NCBI RefSeq assembly: GCF_009184905.1 | Contig: NZ_WESC01000001.1 | Span: 268,679 to 300,678, forward strand | Source: Parvibaculum sedimenti | GTDB lineage: Bacteria > Pseudomonadota > Alphaproteobacteria > Parvibaculales > Parvibaculaceae | DNA length: 32,000 nucleotides | Direction: 5' to 3' | Shown: piece by piece, positions 26,405 through 32,000 of the stretch | Position numbering within the stretch: the first letter of the stretch is position 1 | How the letters are laid out: each line of letters opens with the position of its first letter | Notes under the pieces: generated by a model | Databases searched by the model: none | What the model saw: only the letters and a program-made list of their open reading frames with translations | What the model was told of the DNA's origin: nothing | Program-made: the position numbers and the translations under genes

Positions 26405-26624
26405 GCCACGCATCGCCACCGTCTGCCCACCCGTTGTCGAGTATAGCCGCGAGTTCCAAGCGCGCGCAGCCGAGGAACTCGGGGTGCTGCCGGACGGATC
26501 GGCCATCGCCGAGATGATGAGCGACTACGCCGTCATGCGGGACCAGGCACGAAGTTGCCGCAGCCGGCGCCCATCAGCACAGCGATGGGAAAATGCGCGA
26601 ACTACAAGCGCCTTATCATATTGA
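26313..26624 (+). CDS. o-spanin-like lipoprotein (overlapped architecture)
   Basis: GGAGAAG lies 5 nt upstream of ATG 26313. Signal peptide with lipobox LAVLAIAMSLLTAC. Mature part VCPPVVEYSREFQARAAEEL...DYAVMRDQARSC. Overlaps the preceding gene by 92 nt in another frame. Confidence 0.6.
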   Translation: MTSNARCWMPRLAVLAIAMSLLTACATAGSEPRIATVCPPVVEYSREFQARAAEELGVLPDGSAIAEMMSDYAVMRDQARSCRSRRPSAQRWENARTTSALSY

Positions 26625-26628
26625 TAAT
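26612..26628. promoter_or_regulatory. Second CTTATC-N5-GATAA palindrome
   Basis: CTTATCATATTGATAAT lies in the AT-rich stretch at the end of the lysis cassette, 55 nt upstream of ATG 26683. It has the same half-sites and spacing as 5021-5037. Confidence 0.3.
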
Positions 26629-26682
26629 AATGAAAAAAAGAGCGTTGTAGCACCCTGTCTACTGCACTGGAGGAGCCGGTCA

Positions 26683-26883
26683 ATGCCCCCAAAGTATCCC
26701 AACATCACGGTCCAGCTGACTGGGCATGACAGCAATGCCTTTATGATCCTCGGGTTGTGTCAACGGGCAGCGAAAGACGCCAATCTCCCGAAGGAAGAGA
26801 TCGACGCCTTCTACAAGGAGGCCACAAGCGGTGATCATGATCATCTGATCCAGACCGCCATGCGCTGGTTCAGCTGCGAGTAG
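26683..26883 (+). CDS. Small conserved protein of unknown function (66 aa)
   Basis: GGAGGAG lies 7 nt upstream of ATG 26683; the listed ORF starts at 26593. YPNITVQLTGHDSNAFMILGLCQRAAKDANLPKEEIDAFYKEATSGDHDHLIQTAMRWF matches a widespread small phage/actinobacterial protein pattern I recognise (..GxDGNAFxILG....EATSGDYDxLL) but cannot name. Confidence 0.55.
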   Translation: MPPKYPNITVQLTGHDSNAFMILGLCQRAAKDANLPKEEIDAFYKEATSGDHDHLIQTAMRWFSCE

Positions 26884-29845
26884 CGGCGGAACCAGCCTGC
26901 GCCGCCTTGTCGGCATAGGTCGCAGCGAAAATCGTCTCTGAAAGCCACTTCTTGAACGAGGGATTGTCGCTGAACTGCTTGAAGAGTTCGGTGTGGTCCG
27001 ACAGCAGTTCGATCACCGCGCGCTCCAACGCTTTATCATGCTCGATGCGGGCGTTCTGCTTGTCCGAATTCTGCATCGCGTTCTGGTAGGCCTTGTCGGC
27101 CGCGACCTTCGTGGGCAACTCCTCAGCGATTACCTTCCCGATCTTGTCGGCGTCCTTCCAGTCGATGTTGCCGAACATCTCATTGAACGTCTTGAGGATG
27201 TTGCTGAGCAGGTCCAGTTCCGGCTCAGGCTTGCGACCGCCTCCGCCCAACGGCACAGGTCCGATTTCCGCGTCGGCATCGGGAAGCGCGATCGCCATCG
27301 TCGCCTGCGCCTCGACCCGGTAGCTGTCCATGTCGATGGCCTCCAGAATGCCCTTCGACAGGTCCTGCTCCTCTGGTGCAGGCAATTTCGGCGTCAGGAA
27401 GTTCAGGAAAATCGAGAGCCTCTCCCACTCCGCATTCGTGTACGGCAGGATTGCCGCCAGGAACCCGTAGGTGCGCGTGAAAGCCTTCGCCTTGCCCTTG
27501 AAGTCGACCTGCCCATCTTCATCGAGATCGGCCTTGTAGACCGCAACGCAGGCATCAAGGATGGGGTCGAGTTTGTCCCGGTCGGCGCCACCGAGATACA
27601 ACCCCACGAGGTCCTCCACCTGCTCCCAGGAATAGACCTGGTAGCCGTCGAGCCGCGCTTTCAAGTCGTGCAGCTTGTTCGGGTCGGTCTCCTCGCTCAG
27701 GATCGTCGTGCGATAATAATCCTCGAACGACGCCTTGATGCCGTCTAAGTCGTTCATAAAATCCAGCACGAAGGTGTCGTGCTTCTGCGGATGCGCCCGG
27801 TTCAGGCGCGACAGCGTCTGCACGGCCTTGATGCCGGACAGCGTCTTGTCCACGTACATCGTGTGCAGCAGCGGCTCGTCGTAGCCGGTCTGGAACTTGT
27901 CGGCGACGATGAGGAACCGGTACGGGTCCTTCTGGATCAACTCTTCGATCTTGTTGCTGGGAAAGCCGTTGAGCGACGCCTCAGTCACCTTCTGACCGCC
28001 ATATTCGTGCTCGCCCGAGAAGGCGACGATGGCTTGGTACGGGCTTTTGCGCTCCTTCAGATACTCCTCGAAGGCGTGAAAATACTGGATGGCCCGGTGG
28101 ATCCCGCTGGTCACCACCATGGCGCGCGCTGCTCCGCCGATTTTGCGATGGGCCATCACCTGGTCGTGGAAATGGTCGACCATGATCTCCGCCTTCTTGC
28201 GGATGGCATGGTCATGGGATTCGACATAGCGCCGGAGCTTCTTTTGCGCCCGCTTGGCGTCAAACTGCGGGTCGTCCTCCACCGTCTTCATGAGCCGGTA
28301 GTAGCTTTCGACCGGCGTGTAGTGCTTGAGCACGTCGAGGATGAAGCCCTCTTCGATGGCCTGCTTCATCGAATAATTGTGGAAAGGGACGTGCCTGACC
28401 TTCCCACCCTCGGGGACCGCCGTGCCGAAAATCTCCAGCGTCTTGTTCTTGGGCGTGGCGGTGAAGGCGAAATAGCTCGCGTTCGGCAGAACCTTCCGCG
28501 CCTCCATCAAGCGGTTGATGGTGTCCTCGACGGTTTCGTCTTCCTCCTCGGCACCATTCGCGGCAAGGGCTATGTTCATCTTGGCTGACGTCCGGCCGCC
28601 TTGGCTGGAATGCGCCTCGTCGATAATGATGGCGAAGGTTCGCCCGCGATGGCTGTCCCCGATCTCGTCCAGGATGAACGGAAACTTCTGCACCGTGGTG
28701 ATGATGATCTTCTTGCCCTGCTGCAGGAACGTCCGCAGCTGCTGCGATCCTTCGGTGACCGCGCCGACGATGGAGGACACTTGCGCGAATTGCTTGATGG
28801 TGTCGCGGATCTGCTTGTCGAGATTGCGCCTGTCGGTGACAACGATGACGGTGTCGAAGGTCGGCTTGCCGCCTGTCTCCAGCCCGATCAGCTGGTGGCC
28901 GAGCCAGGCAATCGAGTTGCTCTTGCCTGAACCTGCCGAGTGCTGGATGAGGTACCGCCGCCCGGCGCCGGAAGACCCTGCGTCGGCGAGCAGCTTGCGC
29001 ACCACGTCAAGCTGGTGAAAGCGCGGGAAAATCTGCTTCGGCGGCTTCTTCTTTCCGCGCTCGTCCGTTTCCTCGACCACCTGCGCGTAGTTTTCCAGGA
29101 TGTCGGTGAGGTTGCGCTTGGTCAGAACCTGCTTCCAAAGGTAATCGGTCTTCAGGCCATGCGGATTCGGCGGGTTGCCTGCGCCGTCGTTCCAGCCCTT
29201 GTTGAACGGCAGGAACCAGGACGCTTTGCCTTTCAGGTGGCTGCACATCCGCACTTCGTGGTCGTCCACAGCGAAGTGGACAACGCAGCGGCCGAACTGG
29301 AACAGCAGCTCCTTGGGATCGCGGTCGCGCTTGTACTGTTCGATTGCGTCCTCGACCGTCTGCTTGGTCAGGCTGTTCTTCAACTCGAAGGTGGCGACGG
29401 GCAGACCGTTGATGAACAGCGCCGCGTCGAGCGACAGCTTGGTCGCATCCTTGGAATAGTGCAGTTGGCGGGTAACGCTGAAGATGTTGGCGGCGAACAG
29501 CTCCTCGGCCTTCGCGTTGCCGGGGGTCGGCGTGCCGAAGAACAGCTCGACCGATCCGGGGCCGTGCTTCACGCCGTTGCGCAGCACGTCGATGACACCG
29601 CGCTTGGCGATCTCGCCTTGCAGCCGGTGCAGGAACTGCAGCCGCTTCGGTCCGTCCTCGCCAATGCCGAGGGCTTCGACAGCCTCCGGCTGCGTCGCGT
29701 TCAGGAAGTCGAACAGCTTGGCCAGGTCAATCGCGTGGTCCCGGTCAAAGTCCTTCGACTCGCTAGCAACGTAACCTGCCTCGTCGATCAGCGAGCGGAC
29801 GATGAGGGCTTCGAGGCCTTTTTCGCTGGTGTCAGTCGTCGGCAT
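26870..29845 (-). CDS. hsdR: Type I restriction enzyme, R subunit
   Basis: 991 aa. N-terminal nuclease region (DAALFINGLPVATFELKNSL). Helicase motif I HSAGSGKSNSIAWL, motif II (DEAH) FAIIIDEAHSSQGG, and later SF2 motifs (FTATPK, QTGYDEP, QTLSRLNR). Confidence 0.92.
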   Translation of the reverse strand: MPTTDTSEKGLEALIVRSLIDEAGYVASESKDFDRDHAIDLAKLFDFLNATQPEAVEALGIGEDGPKRLQFLHRLQGEIAKRGVIDVLRNGVKHGPGSVELFFGTPTPGNAKAEELFAANIFSVTRQLHYSKDATKLSLDAALFINGLPVATFELKNSLTKQTVEDAIEQYKRDRDPKELLFQFGRCVVHFAVDDHEVRMCSHLKGKASWFLPFNKGWNDGAGNPPNPHGLKTDYLWKQVLTKRNLTDILENYAQVVEETDERGKKKPPKQIFPRFHQLDVVRKLLADAGSSGAGRRYLIQHSAGSGKSNSIAWLGHQLIGLETGGKPTFDTVIVVTDRRNLDKQIRDTIKQFAQVSSIVGAVTEGSQQLRTFLQQGKKIIITTVQKFPFILDEIGDSHRGRTFAIIIDEAHSSQGGRTSAKMNIALAANGAEEEDETVEDTINRLMEARKVLPNASYFAFTATPKNKTLEIFGTAVPEGGKVRHVPFHNYSMKQAIEEGFILDVLKHYTPVESYYRLMKTVEDDPQFDAKRAQKKLRRYVESHDHAIRKKAEIMVDHFHDQVMAHRKIGGAARAMVVTSGIHRAIQYFHAFEEYLKERKSPYQAIVAFSGEHEYGGQKVTEASLNGFPSNKIEELIQKDPYRFLIVADKFQTGYDEPLLHTMYVDKTLSGIKAVQTLSRLNRAHPQKHDTFVLDFMNDLDGIKASFEDYYRTTILSEETDPNKLHDLKARLDGYQVYSWEQVEDLVGLYLGGADRDKLDPILDACVAVYKADLDEDGQVDFKGKAKAFTRTYGFLAAILPYTNAEWERLSIFLNFLTPKLPAPEEQDLSKGILEAIDMDSYRVEAQATMAIALPDADAEIGPVPLGGGGRKPEPELDLLSNILKTFNEMFGNIDWKDADKIGKVIAEELPTKVAADKAYQNAMQNSDKQNARIEHDKALERAVIELLSDHTELFKQFSDNPSFKKWLSETIFAATYADKAAQAGSAATRS

Positions 29846-31991
29846 CGGCCCCCTCCATCACCTCGGTGTCGTCGCCTTCCTCCTCCAGCGCCTCGTCGTC
29901 GGCAATCGGCTCGTCCGCAGCTTCGGCGATCTCGACATGGCGCACGTCCAGCTTGCCGGTGACGACATCGGCAATCAGGCGCTCTCGGTATTCCCGGATC
30001 AGCGTGATCTCGCTCTGAGCCTTCTCGATTGCCTCGTCGAAGGCGGCGGTCTCAGCCGCAATGTGATCGAGGATGGCCTTCTGTTCGGCCAGATGAGGGG
30101 AAAACGCCACATGAAGCGTGCCCAGACGCCCCTCTGAAATCGCCGGATAGGCAACGCCGATCGACGCTCGTATGACACGCTCAATGAACGTGCTGCTCTG
30201 AAGGACGTAGCCGAGCAAACGGGGCTCCACCTGCTCGACGGGCCGCAGCACGGCGAAGCCTGTGGAAGCGATGAGGTCCGGCCAGTCGTTCTCGATAAAA
30301 TAGACCGCCTTCAGGTACGTTCGAACTGTCGAAAGGATCGTGTCGCCCTTCTGCACGATCTGTCGCGCGCGAGACGGGGCATCTTCGAATTTCATGCGTT
30401 CTGGCTTGGCGGTCAGAAACCCAGTCCCGACACAGCTGATGTCGAGATAATCGAACTCGTACTCTGGCGAGGTCTTGTCGCCGAGTGCTTTGGCGCGTTC
30501 GCGCAGCCAGTGCTTGAGCGGCTTCACCTCCCAATGGGCGGGAACCTCGGGCATCCAGTCGATGCCGGTGGGCTTCATCGGGGCATTGGAGTCTAAGCCG
30601 TGCGTGACGGCTCGGTTGATGATCGCCTGCTTCTGCTCGTTCAGTAGCCCGATCAGCCGCCGCTTGTTGCGGATCAGGCGGCGGACGCGGCGGTCATATG
30701 AATCGATGAATGCGACAATCTTGGTCTGTTCTTCCGTCGGCGGGACGACAACGCGCAGGTCGTAGAAATCATCGGAGTAGAGACGCCAGAACCCTTCGAC
30801 GATCCCTTTGGTGCGCTTGCGCAGCTCCGTCTTATAAATCGGCGACTTGTACAGATGTTCGAAGTAACGCACCTCAGCGCCATCAACGCGGCGGAACACC
30901 GTGTAGTCCGGGCTGATAACGCCAGGCATCGAGGCGTGCGCGAACACACCGAGGTGAGCCTTCAACCGATTCAGAACGAGGTCGCCCGCCTCGCAGAGTT
31001 TCCCGCCTGCGTAACTCTCTGAGCGCAGGCGCCAAGTGTCGATCTTCGAACTTTCGACAAGGCCATGAACTTGGCTCATTGAAAGCTGCGTTTCCTCACC
31101 GGTTTCTGATCTCTTATCGACCTCGCGGAAGACGTACTTGCTGCGCCGAACTTCCCAATGCTCCGGGATCTCTCCGAGCCAAGGCAGGCCGCTGTCCCGA
31201 TATCCGGAATAGGGCATTGGCTTCTTACTGGTGTACGCCTCGGCCGGGCGGTTGCTCTGCTGAATGTTCATTTGCCCCCGGGCGATCGTCGGCTGGTCGA
31301 AAAGAGAAGGTTGCGGGAGGTCTCGCGGTAGTGGCGAGGCGGTTGGCTGCGACGCGTGCGGCTCGATCCCGATCGGCTTCTCCCAACCGTCAGCGGCGCA
31401 AATCGCCTCGATGGGCTGGCGGAACAGAAGGAACTCGGGGATCGCCAGCGGCTCGATGACCCGAAGGCTCTCGGCCTCGTCGCCCTTCATCTGCTCGCGA
31501 AGCTCCATCAGCAGGCGGCCCAGCACGTTCATGCCGACGAGTGATCCGTCCTCGGCCACCTTCGCGCCCCAAAAATCATCCTTGCGGGATTGCTCGACGA
31601 TGGGGCGGTCTCCCGTCGCCAGCAGCAGCCTGCCGAACTCGCGCCAGTTCTGTGCCAGCTTCACCCGCAGGCACCAGCGCATGATCTTCACGCGCACCGC
31701 GTCCCAGTCCGGCCGCGAGTCCTTGCGGAACGGCTTGCTGCGCATCTTGGCCGTCATCGGGCTGTGCTCGTCGATGATCTTGCGCTGCACATCGGGCAGA
31801 TGTGGGAAACGGCAGGCTTGATAGAGCGCTTCCGACGTGCGGATGCGAACGCCGTTCACCCGCAGCGGGAAGCCCGGCGCCATGTTCGACAGACCGCCGA
31901 ACCGCTCGTTCGTCTTCAGAAAGACGACGCTCGATTCGCGGTCGTAGGTGCGAAACTGGTTGCCCCGGGGCGCTTCAGAAGTCGAAGTCAT
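29832..31991 (-). CDS. hsdS: NADAR (YbiA/DUF1768-like) domain fused in frame to a Type I restriction specificity subunit
   Basis: Residues 20-168 are NADAR-like: GGLSNMAP, TSEALYQACRF, SPMTAKM, VRVKIMRWCLRVKLAQN, LLLATGDRPIVEQSRKDDFWG, GMNVLGRLLMELREQ. Residues 170-265 are a P/Q-rich linker. Residues 266-684 are a two-TRD HsdS with both conserved helical regions, followed by a 35-aa acidic tail. No in-frame stop separates the parts. Overlaps the hsdR start by 14 nt. Confidence 0.85.
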   Translation of the reverse strand: MTSTSEAPRGNQFRTYDRESSVVFLKTNERFGGLSNMAPGFPLRVNGVRIRTSEALYQACRFPHLPDVQRKIIDEHSPMTAKMRSKPFRKDSRPDWDAVRVKIMRWCLRVKLAQNWREFGRLLLATGDRPIVEQSRKDDFWGAKVAEDGSLVGMNVLGRLLMELREQMKGDEAESLRVIEPLAIPEFLLFRQPIEAICAADGWEKPIGIEPHASQPTASPLPRDLPQPSLFDQPTIARGQMNIQQSNRPAEAYTSKKPMPYSGYRDSGLPWLGEIPEHWEVRRSKYVFREVDKRSETGEETQLSMSQVHGLVESSKIDTWRLRSESYAGGKLCEAGDLVLNRLKAHLGVFAHASMPGVISPDYTVFRRVDGAEVRYFEHLYKSPIYKTELRKRTKGIVEGFWRLYSDDFYDLRVVVPPTEEQTKIVAFIDSYDRRVRRLIRNKRRLIGLLNEQKQAIINRAVTHGLDSNAPMKPTGIDWMPEVPAHWEVKPLKHWLRERAKALGDKTSPEYEFDYLDISCVGTGFLTAKPERMKFEDAPSRARQIVQKGDTILSTVRTYLKAVYFIENDWPDLIASTGFAVLRPVEQVEPRLLGYVLQSSTFIERVIRASIGVAYPAISEGRLGTLHVAFSPHLAEQKAILDHIAAETAAFDEAIEKAQSEITLIREYRERLIADVVTGKLDVRHVEIAEAADEPIADDEALEEEGDDTEVMEGADADD

Positions 31992-32000
31992 CGAAATCGA
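31975..32000 (-). CDS. 3' end of an upstream gene in the same operon (possibly hsdM)
   Basis: The minus-strand frame reads ...DFDDFDF-stop (TGA at 31977-31975), overlapping the NADAR-hsdS ATG by 17 nt. Only 8 codons are visible, so the identity is a guess from operon context. Confidence 0.2.

Follow-up and report, generated by a model that had tools for sequence, protein, structure and literature searches.

Why would an enzyme of the NADAR family be tied to the subunit with which a Type I restriction-modification (R-M) system reads DNA, and is the tie real? The question is raised by a 32,000-nucleotide stretch of the genome of Parvibaculum sedimenti (Alphaproteobacteria; RefSeq assembly GCF_009184905.1, contig NZ_WESC01000001.1, positions 268,679 to 300,678 of the forward strand; the whole stretch is hereafter called the window), in which one open reading frame (ORF) encodes both a NADAR domain and the specificity subunit HsdS. 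Here, we report that the tie is genuine: one gene encodes a NADAR enzyme together with the subunit that reads DNA for a Type I system. On profile matches and gene order, the locus very probably carries a complete DS-32 module nested between the hsdM and hsdS genes of a Type I operon, with DS-32B fused to HsdS. DS-32, known from DefensePredictor, is a two-gene system composed of a phosphoribosyltransferase (PRTase; DS-32A) and a NADAR protein (DS-32B) and protects Escherichia coli from phage (bioRxiv 10.1101/2025.01.08.631726; PMC13092281).

Fusion gene

29832..31991, minus strand: NADAR::HsdS fusion gene, 719 aa plus stop codon (single ORF; profile matches; conserved in 51 other genomes)

The initial annotation had described a single three-part, 719-codon, minus-strand ORF with no stop codon between its parts. 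The ORF matches this exactly, with an ATG start and zero internal stops. Among homologues, too, the fusion is called as one gene, with a single product of 703 aa, by three independent pipelines (NCBI, JGI, and Logan). With each GTDB species represented by one genome, a scan gave 79 loci, which were subjected to ORF and BLAST analysis; 51 of the 79 (species representatives from ~10 phyla) had a single ORF of 660 to 765 aa with NADAR and a full HsdS. Hosts included Alpha-, Beta-, and Gammaproteobacteria, Verrucomicrobiota, Rhodothermales, Thermodesulfobacteriota, Acidobacteriota, Latescibacterota, Planctomycetota, Myxococcota, Chloroflexota, and Binatia. With the identical single ORF in 51 independent genomes, an assembly artifact or a sequencing frameshift was ruled out as the source of the fusion. 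The whole protein was closest, among GTDB species representatives, to that of Paracoccus indicus (81% identity). Cultivable carriers of the operon include P. indicus, Paracoccus luteus, and Poseidonocella pacifica. Residues, motifs, and internal starts were counted over 52 fusions.

A word-indexed homology search first suggested a unique case: the best 120 matches to the NADAR part were all short (210 to 364 aa), although fusions up to 95% identical in that part exist; such a list can hide longer multidomain relatives. This was overturned by the genome scan and by a HMMER search of 1.84 billion cluster representatives, which returned dozens of full-length fusions among its best 150 matches (50%-identity clusters). 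A survey for such fusions, proposed in the initial annotation, thus yielded the 51 species representatives and one locus (L089, Deinococcales) in which a separate NADAR gene precedes hsdS. JGI annotates many short NADAR fragments as "type I restriction enzyme S subunit," presumably transferred from fusions.

The overlaps claimed on both sides of the gene were present and bear out its translational coupling. hsdR lies 3' of the fusion gene and shares 14 nt with it, and the ATG is overlapped by the end of an upstream ORF, for which the supported frame ends in DFDDFDF plus a stop codon, the C terminus of a PRTase-CE protein (17-nt overlap). An internal start at M241, suggested as the source of a stand-alone HsdS, did not hold up: in the alignment of 52 fusions, neither M241 nor M259 was conserved as a start.

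Modules of the fusion protein

31392..31958, minus strand: DS-32B-type NADAR module, complete, residues 12 to 200 (Pfam, NCBIfam, residue alignment, structure model)
31227..31391, minus strand: disordered tether, residues 201 to 255, ~55 aa (structure model; variable in alignment)
31296..31313, minus strand: QPSLFD short linear motif within the tether, residues 227 to 232 (alignment)
29922..31226, minus strand: complete HsdS, residues 256 to 690, with first target recognition domain (TRD1), central helix, TRD2, and distal helix (PADLOC, structure model, Foldseek, alignment)
29835..29921, minus strand: polyacidic, disordered C-terminal tail of HsdS, residues 691 to 719 (structure model, composition)

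An AlphaFold2 (AF2) model of the fusion (23 homologues) had a mean predicted local distance difference test (pLDDT) score of 79.9 and two confident modules, residues 12 to 200 and 256 to 690. The YbiA-like NADAR that had been placed at residues ~20 to 168 was recovered by three methods. A profile search, which had been suggested for residues 1 to 175, matched Pfam PF08719 (NADAR) at residues 24 to 168 (E = 1.8e-25; 90.5 bits; cutoff, 35.1); phmmer matched E. coli YbiA (PDB 2b3w; E = 1.9e-19), the best solved relative by sequence; and Foldseek aligned the NADAR part of the model to 2b3w with a template modeling (TM) score of 0.71 (0.65 to 8bau). The pLDDT over residues 12 to 200 was 78 to 94.

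Residues 14 to 194 covered positions 1 to 181 of 181 of the equivalog model NCBIfam NF053876.1 (DS32_2_antiphage, NADAR family anti-phage protein) at 295.2 bits (cutoff, 240). By profile, the N-terminal 194 residues are an end-to-end DS-32B equivalog; TIGR02464 (riboflavin-intermediate N-glycosidase) was also passed (80.2 bits; cutoff, 73.7). The module consists of a YbiA-fold core (residues 24 to 168) and a family-specific C-terminal extension containing PLAIPEFLLF (residues 181 to 190). Residues 170 to 265 had been read as a Pro/Gln-rich linker; a disordered tether is indeed there, at residues 201 to 255, but residues 170 to 200 are a conserved, structured extension of the DS-32B family, into which the NCBIfam model reaches (to residue 194; pLDDT, 78 to 86).

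Alignment to 2b3w and to Phytophthora nicotianae NADAR (8bau), together with residues of known importance (PMC11543638), placed the catalytic and ligand residues at E54, R61, W96, R100, E133, D138, and W141. E54, R61, W96, E133, and W141 were invariant in 52/52 fusions. R61 occupies the position of the phosphate-binding Lys, and a Lys-to-Arg NADAR mutant (K95R) is active in vitro (PMC11543638). E133 is the YbiA-type Glu, not the Asp of BC4488-type, DarT1-linked NADARs. Majority identity across fusions was 80 to 89% in the NADAR block and 15 to 55% in the TRDs. Since the catalytic residues are invariant and the block is highly conserved, the NADAR in the fusion appears, by prediction, to be active. 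NADARs are antitoxins that hydrolyze N-glycosidic base adducts, and YbiA splits N-(5-phosphoribosyl)amino pyrimidines (PMC11543638, PMC11125620).

The tether (pLDDT, ~30) had a majority identity of 0.12 to 0.41 and differed among homologues in length and sequence, with a spacing between NADAR and HsdS of 50 to 116 aa. Within it, the strict pattern S[LM]F[DEG] was present in 33 of the 52 fusions, and most of the remaining ones had variants of it. The 217-aa free DS-32B proteins (P0086, P0103, P0119, and that of locus L006) terminate in Q-x-A/S-L-F-COOH, so QPSLFD corresponds to the extreme C terminus of free-standing DS-32B. In the fusion alignment, 20 to 60 variable residues follow it, and then the intact native N terminus of HsdS (..PYSGYRDSGLPWLGEIPEHWEV), which aligns, starting at the very first residues, with unfused HsdS of L028, L086, and L089. 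Because the tail motif of the free protein and the native HsdS N terminus are both retained, the fusion consists, on the alignment, of an entire DS-32B and an entire HsdS with a spacer between them.

The complete two-TRD HsdS claimed for residues ~266 to 684 was likewise found. PADLOC Specificity_I (PDLC03105) matched residues 261 to 688 (profile positions 7 to 442 of 448; E = 4e-102), and both helices quoted in the initial annotation were present (central, residues 417 to 462, and distal, 634 to 683, with long helices at 419 to 464 and 634 to 677 in the two-TRD AF2 model), as were the motifs IPEHWEV (residues 275 to 281) and VPAHWEV (residues 483 to 489), one per TRD region. Foldseek matches were 1yf2, 7vs4, 5ybb, and 2y7c (Ocr-bound EcoKI). 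The last 30 aa contained 16 D/E and no K/R, and a comparable ~30-aa tail (12 to 17 D/E, almost no K/R) was also seen on unfused HsdS (L028, L086, L070, and others); it could be a DNA-mimic-like autoinhibitory element or an HsdR-contacting one. Terminal fusions to HsdS are tolerated: green fluorescent protein on the C terminus of EcoKI HsdS is reported to leave methyltransferase activity unchanged (PMC2914225).

Partner gene

31975..32000, minus strand: 3' end of PRTase-CE/DS-32A-like gene, cut by the window edge (last seven codons, DFDDFDF, plus TGA at 31977..31975)
26870..29845, minus strand: hsdR, 991 aa (Pfam HSDR_N, SWI2_SNF2, ResIII, and T1R_D3-like; PADLOC REase_I)

Only 9 nt of the window lie 5' of the fusion ATG. 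The seven codons and stop are identical to the C terminus of PRTase-CE in L013 and L023 (...EVDFDDFDF plus stop), where the next gene begins MTSTSEAPR.., as in the window, and where the overlap is also 17 nt; the same overlap is found in L002, L006, L018, and others. Across loci, the PRTase-CE and NADAR genes overlap by 1 to 17 nt.

The partner genes of relatives carry a single Pfam domain, PF24390 (PRTase-CE; E = 1.7e-58), and score 411 to 418 bits on NCBIfam NF053875.1 (DS32_1_antiphage; cutoff, 250). The signature of the loop that binds phosphoribosyl pyrophosphate (PRPP), Y-x-D-D-x-x-F-x-G-x-R, was invariant in 61 distinct PRTase-CE sequences, and the enzyme appears, as predicted from these, to be active. 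Its AF2 model had a pLDDT of 86 and a predicted TM score of 0.85. Profile searches gave no ShosT match and weak matches to retron III-A PRTase models. DarT-like genes, for whose co-occurrence a check had been proposed, were absent from the loci examined; by profile, the partner is a phosphoribosyltransferase (divergent, type I) and not a DarT-like ADP-ribosyltransferase. The order writer then eraser is also that of darT-darG.

The NADAR gene stood directly 3' of PRTase-CE in 38/38 IMG/VR loci seeded on PRTase-CE, and PRTase-CE was upstream in every fusion locus with upstream DNA except L062; the pairing is obligate.

Distribution and operon layout

Relatives share a constant order, hsdM - PRTase-CE - NADAR::hsdS - hsdR, with extra genes before hsdR in some. 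The hsdR of the window is 60 to 98% identical to hsdR genes 3' of fusions in other genomes; hsdM, outside the window, is present in every relative having upstream DNA. The same HsdM/S/R lineage also exists without the insert (L028, L086, and others), and the PRTase-NADAR pair is therefore an insertion. In L026, HsdS is frameshifted.

In the alphaproteobacterial group nearest the window, hsdM and the PRTase gene are separated by a GmrSD_N/DUF262 gene of 598 aa. It matches PADLOC HEC-05 (BrxU-like, Type IV; L011:7121-8917), Pfam recognizing its N-terminal domain only, and occurs in L011 and ~16 other loci (e.g., L013, L015, L017, and L018). As this BrxU-like gene joins the Type I and DS-32 genes, the closest relatives carry three defense systems in one operon. 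The same is probably true of the genome of the window beyond nt 32000, where the PRTase gene would come first, then the BrxU-like gene as in the closest relatives, and then hsdM.

Two side observations concern the region 5' of hsdM in Paracoccus indicus: a 245-aa ORF (L011:3195-3932, minus strand) has the motif ..LIIDTKWK.. and is McrC-nuclease-like by eye, and the adjacent L011:2682-3047 resembles an insertion sequence (IS) transposase fragment. If confirmed, these would indicate a decayed defense island beside the operon.

Other fusion partners of the NADAR

PRTase-seeded loci and the cluster-representative search led to NADAR fusions other than those with HsdS, each directly 3' of a PRTase-CE gene. 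In L111 to L113 (e.g., L111:7032-10763) and P0258, a DS-32B-type NADAR is fused to the DNA-adenine methylase HmaB (DUF1156) in the order HmaA helicase (576 bits), PRTase-CE, NADAR::HmaB (328 bits), DUF499 ATPase; L109 has the same Hma system and PRTase-CE, but its methylase is without NADAR. Two genes 5' of PRTase-CE in L109 is a RES-domain gene, with an SNF2/NOV_C helicase between them. In P0231 (L114:1383-3506), NADAR is fused to a PsyrA/ShosA-type DprA-like antitoxin (PsyrA, 440 bits), making a "double antidote," 3' of which are a 688-aa gene of no assigned family and a DEAD/Helicase_C/MZB protein. In P0250 (L115:452-2350), the partner is a Schlafen-like ATPase.

The fused half is always NADAR and never PRTase, with at least four partners (HsdS, HmaB, PsyrA/ShosA-type antitoxin, and ATPase). 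In the defense or toxin-antitoxin systems to which they belong, HsdS, HmaB, and the PsyrA/ShosA-type antitoxin each form the self-protective or DNA-binding half. Selection for tethering of the antidote is suggested because NADAR alone is fused, to at least four partners, with its tail motif retained.

Free forms and mobile setting

Among the 38 IMG/VR loci, 6 had NADAR fused to HsdS; most NADARs were free (206 to 290 aa), the free form being the commoner one in this sample. Full-length fusions in IMG/VR numbered four. The fusion was not found in cultured-phage records or among PLSDB plasmids, and a DNA search of complete E. coli genomes gave no match to the transposon-borne DS-32 pair.

In a neighbor-joining, midpoint-rooted NADAR tree (no support values), the 217-aa free NADARs associated with transposons or integrons formed a separate clade, and the free NADARs nearest the window (L001, L002, L071, L082, and L087) nested among the fusions. 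L001:6080-9511 and L002:6008-10396 hold PRTase-CE and a truncated NADAR between two IS copies (DDE_Tnp_1), an arrangement like that of a composite transposon, and the C-terminal part of the 364-aa L002 NADAR resembles the HsdR C terminus (38% over residues 878 to 979). These free NADARs look like secondary truncations, or deletion derivatives, of the R-M-embedded form. NADARs of the 364-aa L002 type were found in many TARA contigs.

Loci L006 to L010 (e.g., L006:3427-8912) carry a free 217-aa DS-32 pair that is identical in many Pseudomonadota and adjoins a class 1 integron (sul1-, qacE-, and aadA-like genes), a resolvase, a P4 cII-like gene, and a RES-domain gene. Given this identity beside a class 1 integron, the free pair is spreading on an antibiotic-resistance-associated mobile element.

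In the window, the fusion has the following setting.

5576-26624, plus strand (5576-26150 in a narrower delimitation): prophage (gpA terminase, lambda-type portal, capsid, tape measure, lysis genes)
26593-26883, plus strand: ORF, 96 aa, no Pfam match, in the low-GC stretch between the lysis genes and the hsdR end, converging on hsdR

The prophage, which fills most of the window and has the operon at its end, also encodes a 1,305-aa GTA_TIM host-specificity protein, a DUF2793/C1q-like fiber, an M15 endolysin, and small lysis ORFs. GC content drops from ~0.69 to ~0.60 at ~26,600, the start of the operon, directly after the lysis genes; no tRNA or Rfam family was found at this boundary. Homology with the window runs from the operon into tail genes in L011 and L018 and into lysis genes in L017, L012, L035, and L067. 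The window itself is a mosaic, with NADAR nearest L013 (95%) and HsdS nearest L011 (88%). As the lysis and tail linkage is common to relatives and four fusions are in IMG/VR, the operon seems to travel as cargo at the ends of temperate phages.

Proposed mechanism and alternatives

The explanation we favor is a nested DS-32 acting as toxin and antidote, with the antidote tied to the R-M core; taken as a whole, it could equally well prove right or wrong. Its toxin/antidote logic is, on protein families and motifs, fairly probable. PRTase-CE would be a toxic writer that places a PRPP-derived 5-phosphoribosyl group on a nucleobase or other nitrogen nucleophile (in DNA, RNA, or the nucleotide pool), and NADAR would be the eraser, or antidote, that cuts the resulting N-glycosidic bond. 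A PRTase is a defense toxin in ShosT, where the DD motif is essential for toxicity (PMC11961720), and the authors of DefensePredictor, who found DS-32B structurally like the NADAR antitoxin of DarTG and DS-32A unlike DarT, proposed toxin-antitoxin partner swapping for DS-32 (bioRxiv 10.1101/2025.01.08.631726).

The specific coupling, in which the antidote guards the R-M core, is put forward tentatively and by analogy with Ronin and PrrC, toxins that the methylase core of a Type I system keeps in check until anti-restriction proteins set them free (bioRxiv 10.1101/2023.04.06.535777). Within HsdS, the antidote would sit in the M2S or R2M2S complex on DNA, and since it is covalently part of HsdS, its availability would depend on that complex. 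A phage that disabled the R-M core (by DNA-mimic anti-restriction proteins, proteolysis, or host shut-off) would cause the antidote to drop, and the freed PRTase would then block replication of phage and cell as a second line behind restriction. Restriction and a toxin/antidote-like module in one polypeptide would bear on how bacteria answer phage anti-restriction proteins. DS-32 was validated only in 2025-26; that its NADAR is recurrently tethered to subunits that read or methylate DNA, and also to an antitoxin of the DprA-like kind, suggests that it acts on DNA or on complexes bound to DNA.

Several points weigh against this explanation. The PRTase-CE model shows a weak, core-only likeness to solved type I PRTases (UPRT 5e38 best, E = 5e-3; OPRT, APRT, and HGPRT), and no sequence homologue was found in the PDB; because of both, the acceptor substrate cannot be inferred from the model. 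The DefensePredictor texts do not report DS-32A toxicity, DS-32B antidote activity, or the mechanism of DS-32. Free DS-32 functions without any R-M system, and across a flexible 55-aa tether there is no obvious route by which a DNA mimic in the HsdS/HsdM groove would switch off NADAR. The full PRTase gene and hsdM lie beyond the window edge. In L089, NADAR and HsdS are separate overlapping genes, and in L062, the fusion is present and PRTase is absent; neither fusion nor partner is therefore absolutely required.

A role in effector recruitment, in which NADAR binds and neutralizes PRTase, the fusion docks the pair on the Type I enzyme, and unmethylated sites release or activate PRTase to modify invader DNA, is unlikely. 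HsdS, HmaB, and the other partners would then supply a sensor of non-self DNA, which free DS-32 does not have. It would suit the facts that every fusion partner is a DNA-recognizing or DNA-processing defense component, that the TRDs still diversify like those of a functional HsdS, and that QPSLFD is conserved in a disordered tether, as for a partner-binding peptide; DarG is reported to bind DarT directly (PMC11125620). Fusing PRTase itself would be simpler, yet PRTase is never fused, and, against a NADAR-PRTase complex, ShosT and ShosA do not interact with each other (PMC11961720).

The fusion may instead be incidental or regulatory, a stop codon having been lost between coupled genes, either harmlessly or in a way that ensures co-expression or co-inheritance of two antidotes (NADAR and the methylase core), with no cross-talk. 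Independent defense systems are commonly embedded, co-oriented, in Type I, Hma, and BREX operons (bioRxiv 10.1101/2024.01.29.577857), DS-32 works alone in E. coli (bioRxiv 10.1101/2025.01.08.631726), and the long, disordered, variable tether, the split version in L089, and the free NADARs that arose when fusions underwent IS insertion or deletion (L001 and L002) all fit. Against it stand the retention of one ORF in 51 species, ~10 phyla, and dozens of 50%-identity clusters, the fact that the fused side is always NADAR, and the joining of the same NADAR to at least three other partners, which argues for selection; we consider this reading improbable.

A narrower reading makes the PRTase-NADAR pair a writer and eraser for PRPP-dependent N-phosphoribosylation of DNA bases, which would be a previously undescribed modification of nucleic acid. 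Host DNA would be kept clean, and marking and a block to replication would befall invading DNA or, with the R-M core inhibited, all DNA. An eraser on HsdS or HmaB would then tie erasure to sequence or to the state of the methylation complex. We give this reading little credence.

Very unlikely is the proposal of the initial annotation that the tethered NADAR unmasks phage DNA for restriction by stripping it of base modifications of the ADP-ribosyl or another N-glycosidic type: NADARs, YbiA-type included, do hydrolyze ADP-ribosyl-guanine in DNA (PMC11125620), the catalytic residues are intact, and the HsdS tether would place the enzyme on DNA, but the NADAR is not an orphan, and the proposal leaves the obligate, cognate PRTase partner of a DS-32B equivalog unexplained, would be senseless for a NADAR fused to a PsyrA/ShosA-type antitoxin or an ATPase, and meets a pair that is autonomous elsewhere and examined loci that lack a DarT-like gene. 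The other option raised there, coupling of R-M to an immunity or toxin pathway, came near the evidence.

Comparison with known systems

Among the papers searched, no description was found of a NADAR-HsdS fusion, of PRTase-CE, or of an R-M-embedded DS-32, in line with the earlier statement that no described Type I system of this architecture was known; in the 2023 Mol Cell NADAR paper, HsdS is mentioned in strain genotypes only. Fusions are annotated as "HsdS" or "NADAR family protein," and unless the architecture is recognized, DS-32 is under-counted and HsdS lengths are mis-modeled.

With DS-32, the system shares both proteins (the equivalog models being passed by the NADAR of the window and, in relatives, by the PRTase partner), gene order, overlap, and catalytic motifs. 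DS-32 was described as a free-standing two-gene system, whereas the present module lies within a Type I operon, flanked by hsdM and joined through DS-32B to HsdS. In E. coli, the validated example is probably a more distant free form of ~206 to 217 aa; such NADARs (44 to 50% identity) occur in IMG/VR.

DarTG1 is likewise an antiphage writer-then-eraser pair in which a NADAR reverses an N-glycosidic base modification, a function that is predicted here. It has a NAD-dependent ADP-ribosyltransferase and a BC4488-type NADAR (Asp), whereas the system in the window has a PRPP-dependent PRTase and a YbiA-type NADAR (Glu133); DarTG NADARs, moreover, are free-standing. Membership in DarTG was rejected on account of the wrong partner (PRTase-CE) and the wrong catalytic residue (Glu133).

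ShosTA shares a PRTase with a DD motif, which in ShosT is essential to its action as a defense toxin, and a relative of the window NADAR (P0231) is fused, 3' of PRTase-CE, to a PsyrA/ShosA-type DprA-like domain. ShosT is a two-domain PPase-PRTase, whereas PRTase-CE is without the PPase domain and has no significant match to the ShosT model; ShosA is a DNA-repair recruiter, whereas the antidote here is a predicted N-glycohydrolase.

PrrC/EcoprrI and Ronin are also back-up modules embedded in a Type I operon, with a tie to the methylase core and a layered anti-anti-restriction logic that the present system would share. There, the toxin is held noncovalently by HsdMS; here, HsdS carries the antidote covalently, and the putative toxin is an enzyme of its own.

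Embedded defense genes (Payne et al. 2024, bioRxiv 10.1101/2024.01.29.577857) resemble the present case in their same-strand insertion into multigene systems, to which the HEC-05/BrxU-like gene in the operon of relatives and NADAR::HmaB inside an Hma system may be compared. They are described as separate genes; the PRTase-NADAR pair and its in-frame fusion to a subunit of the host system are absent from the text of Payne et al. DS-32, Type I R-M, and embedding are known; what is new is that the two are joined covalently and that such joining recurs with other partners.

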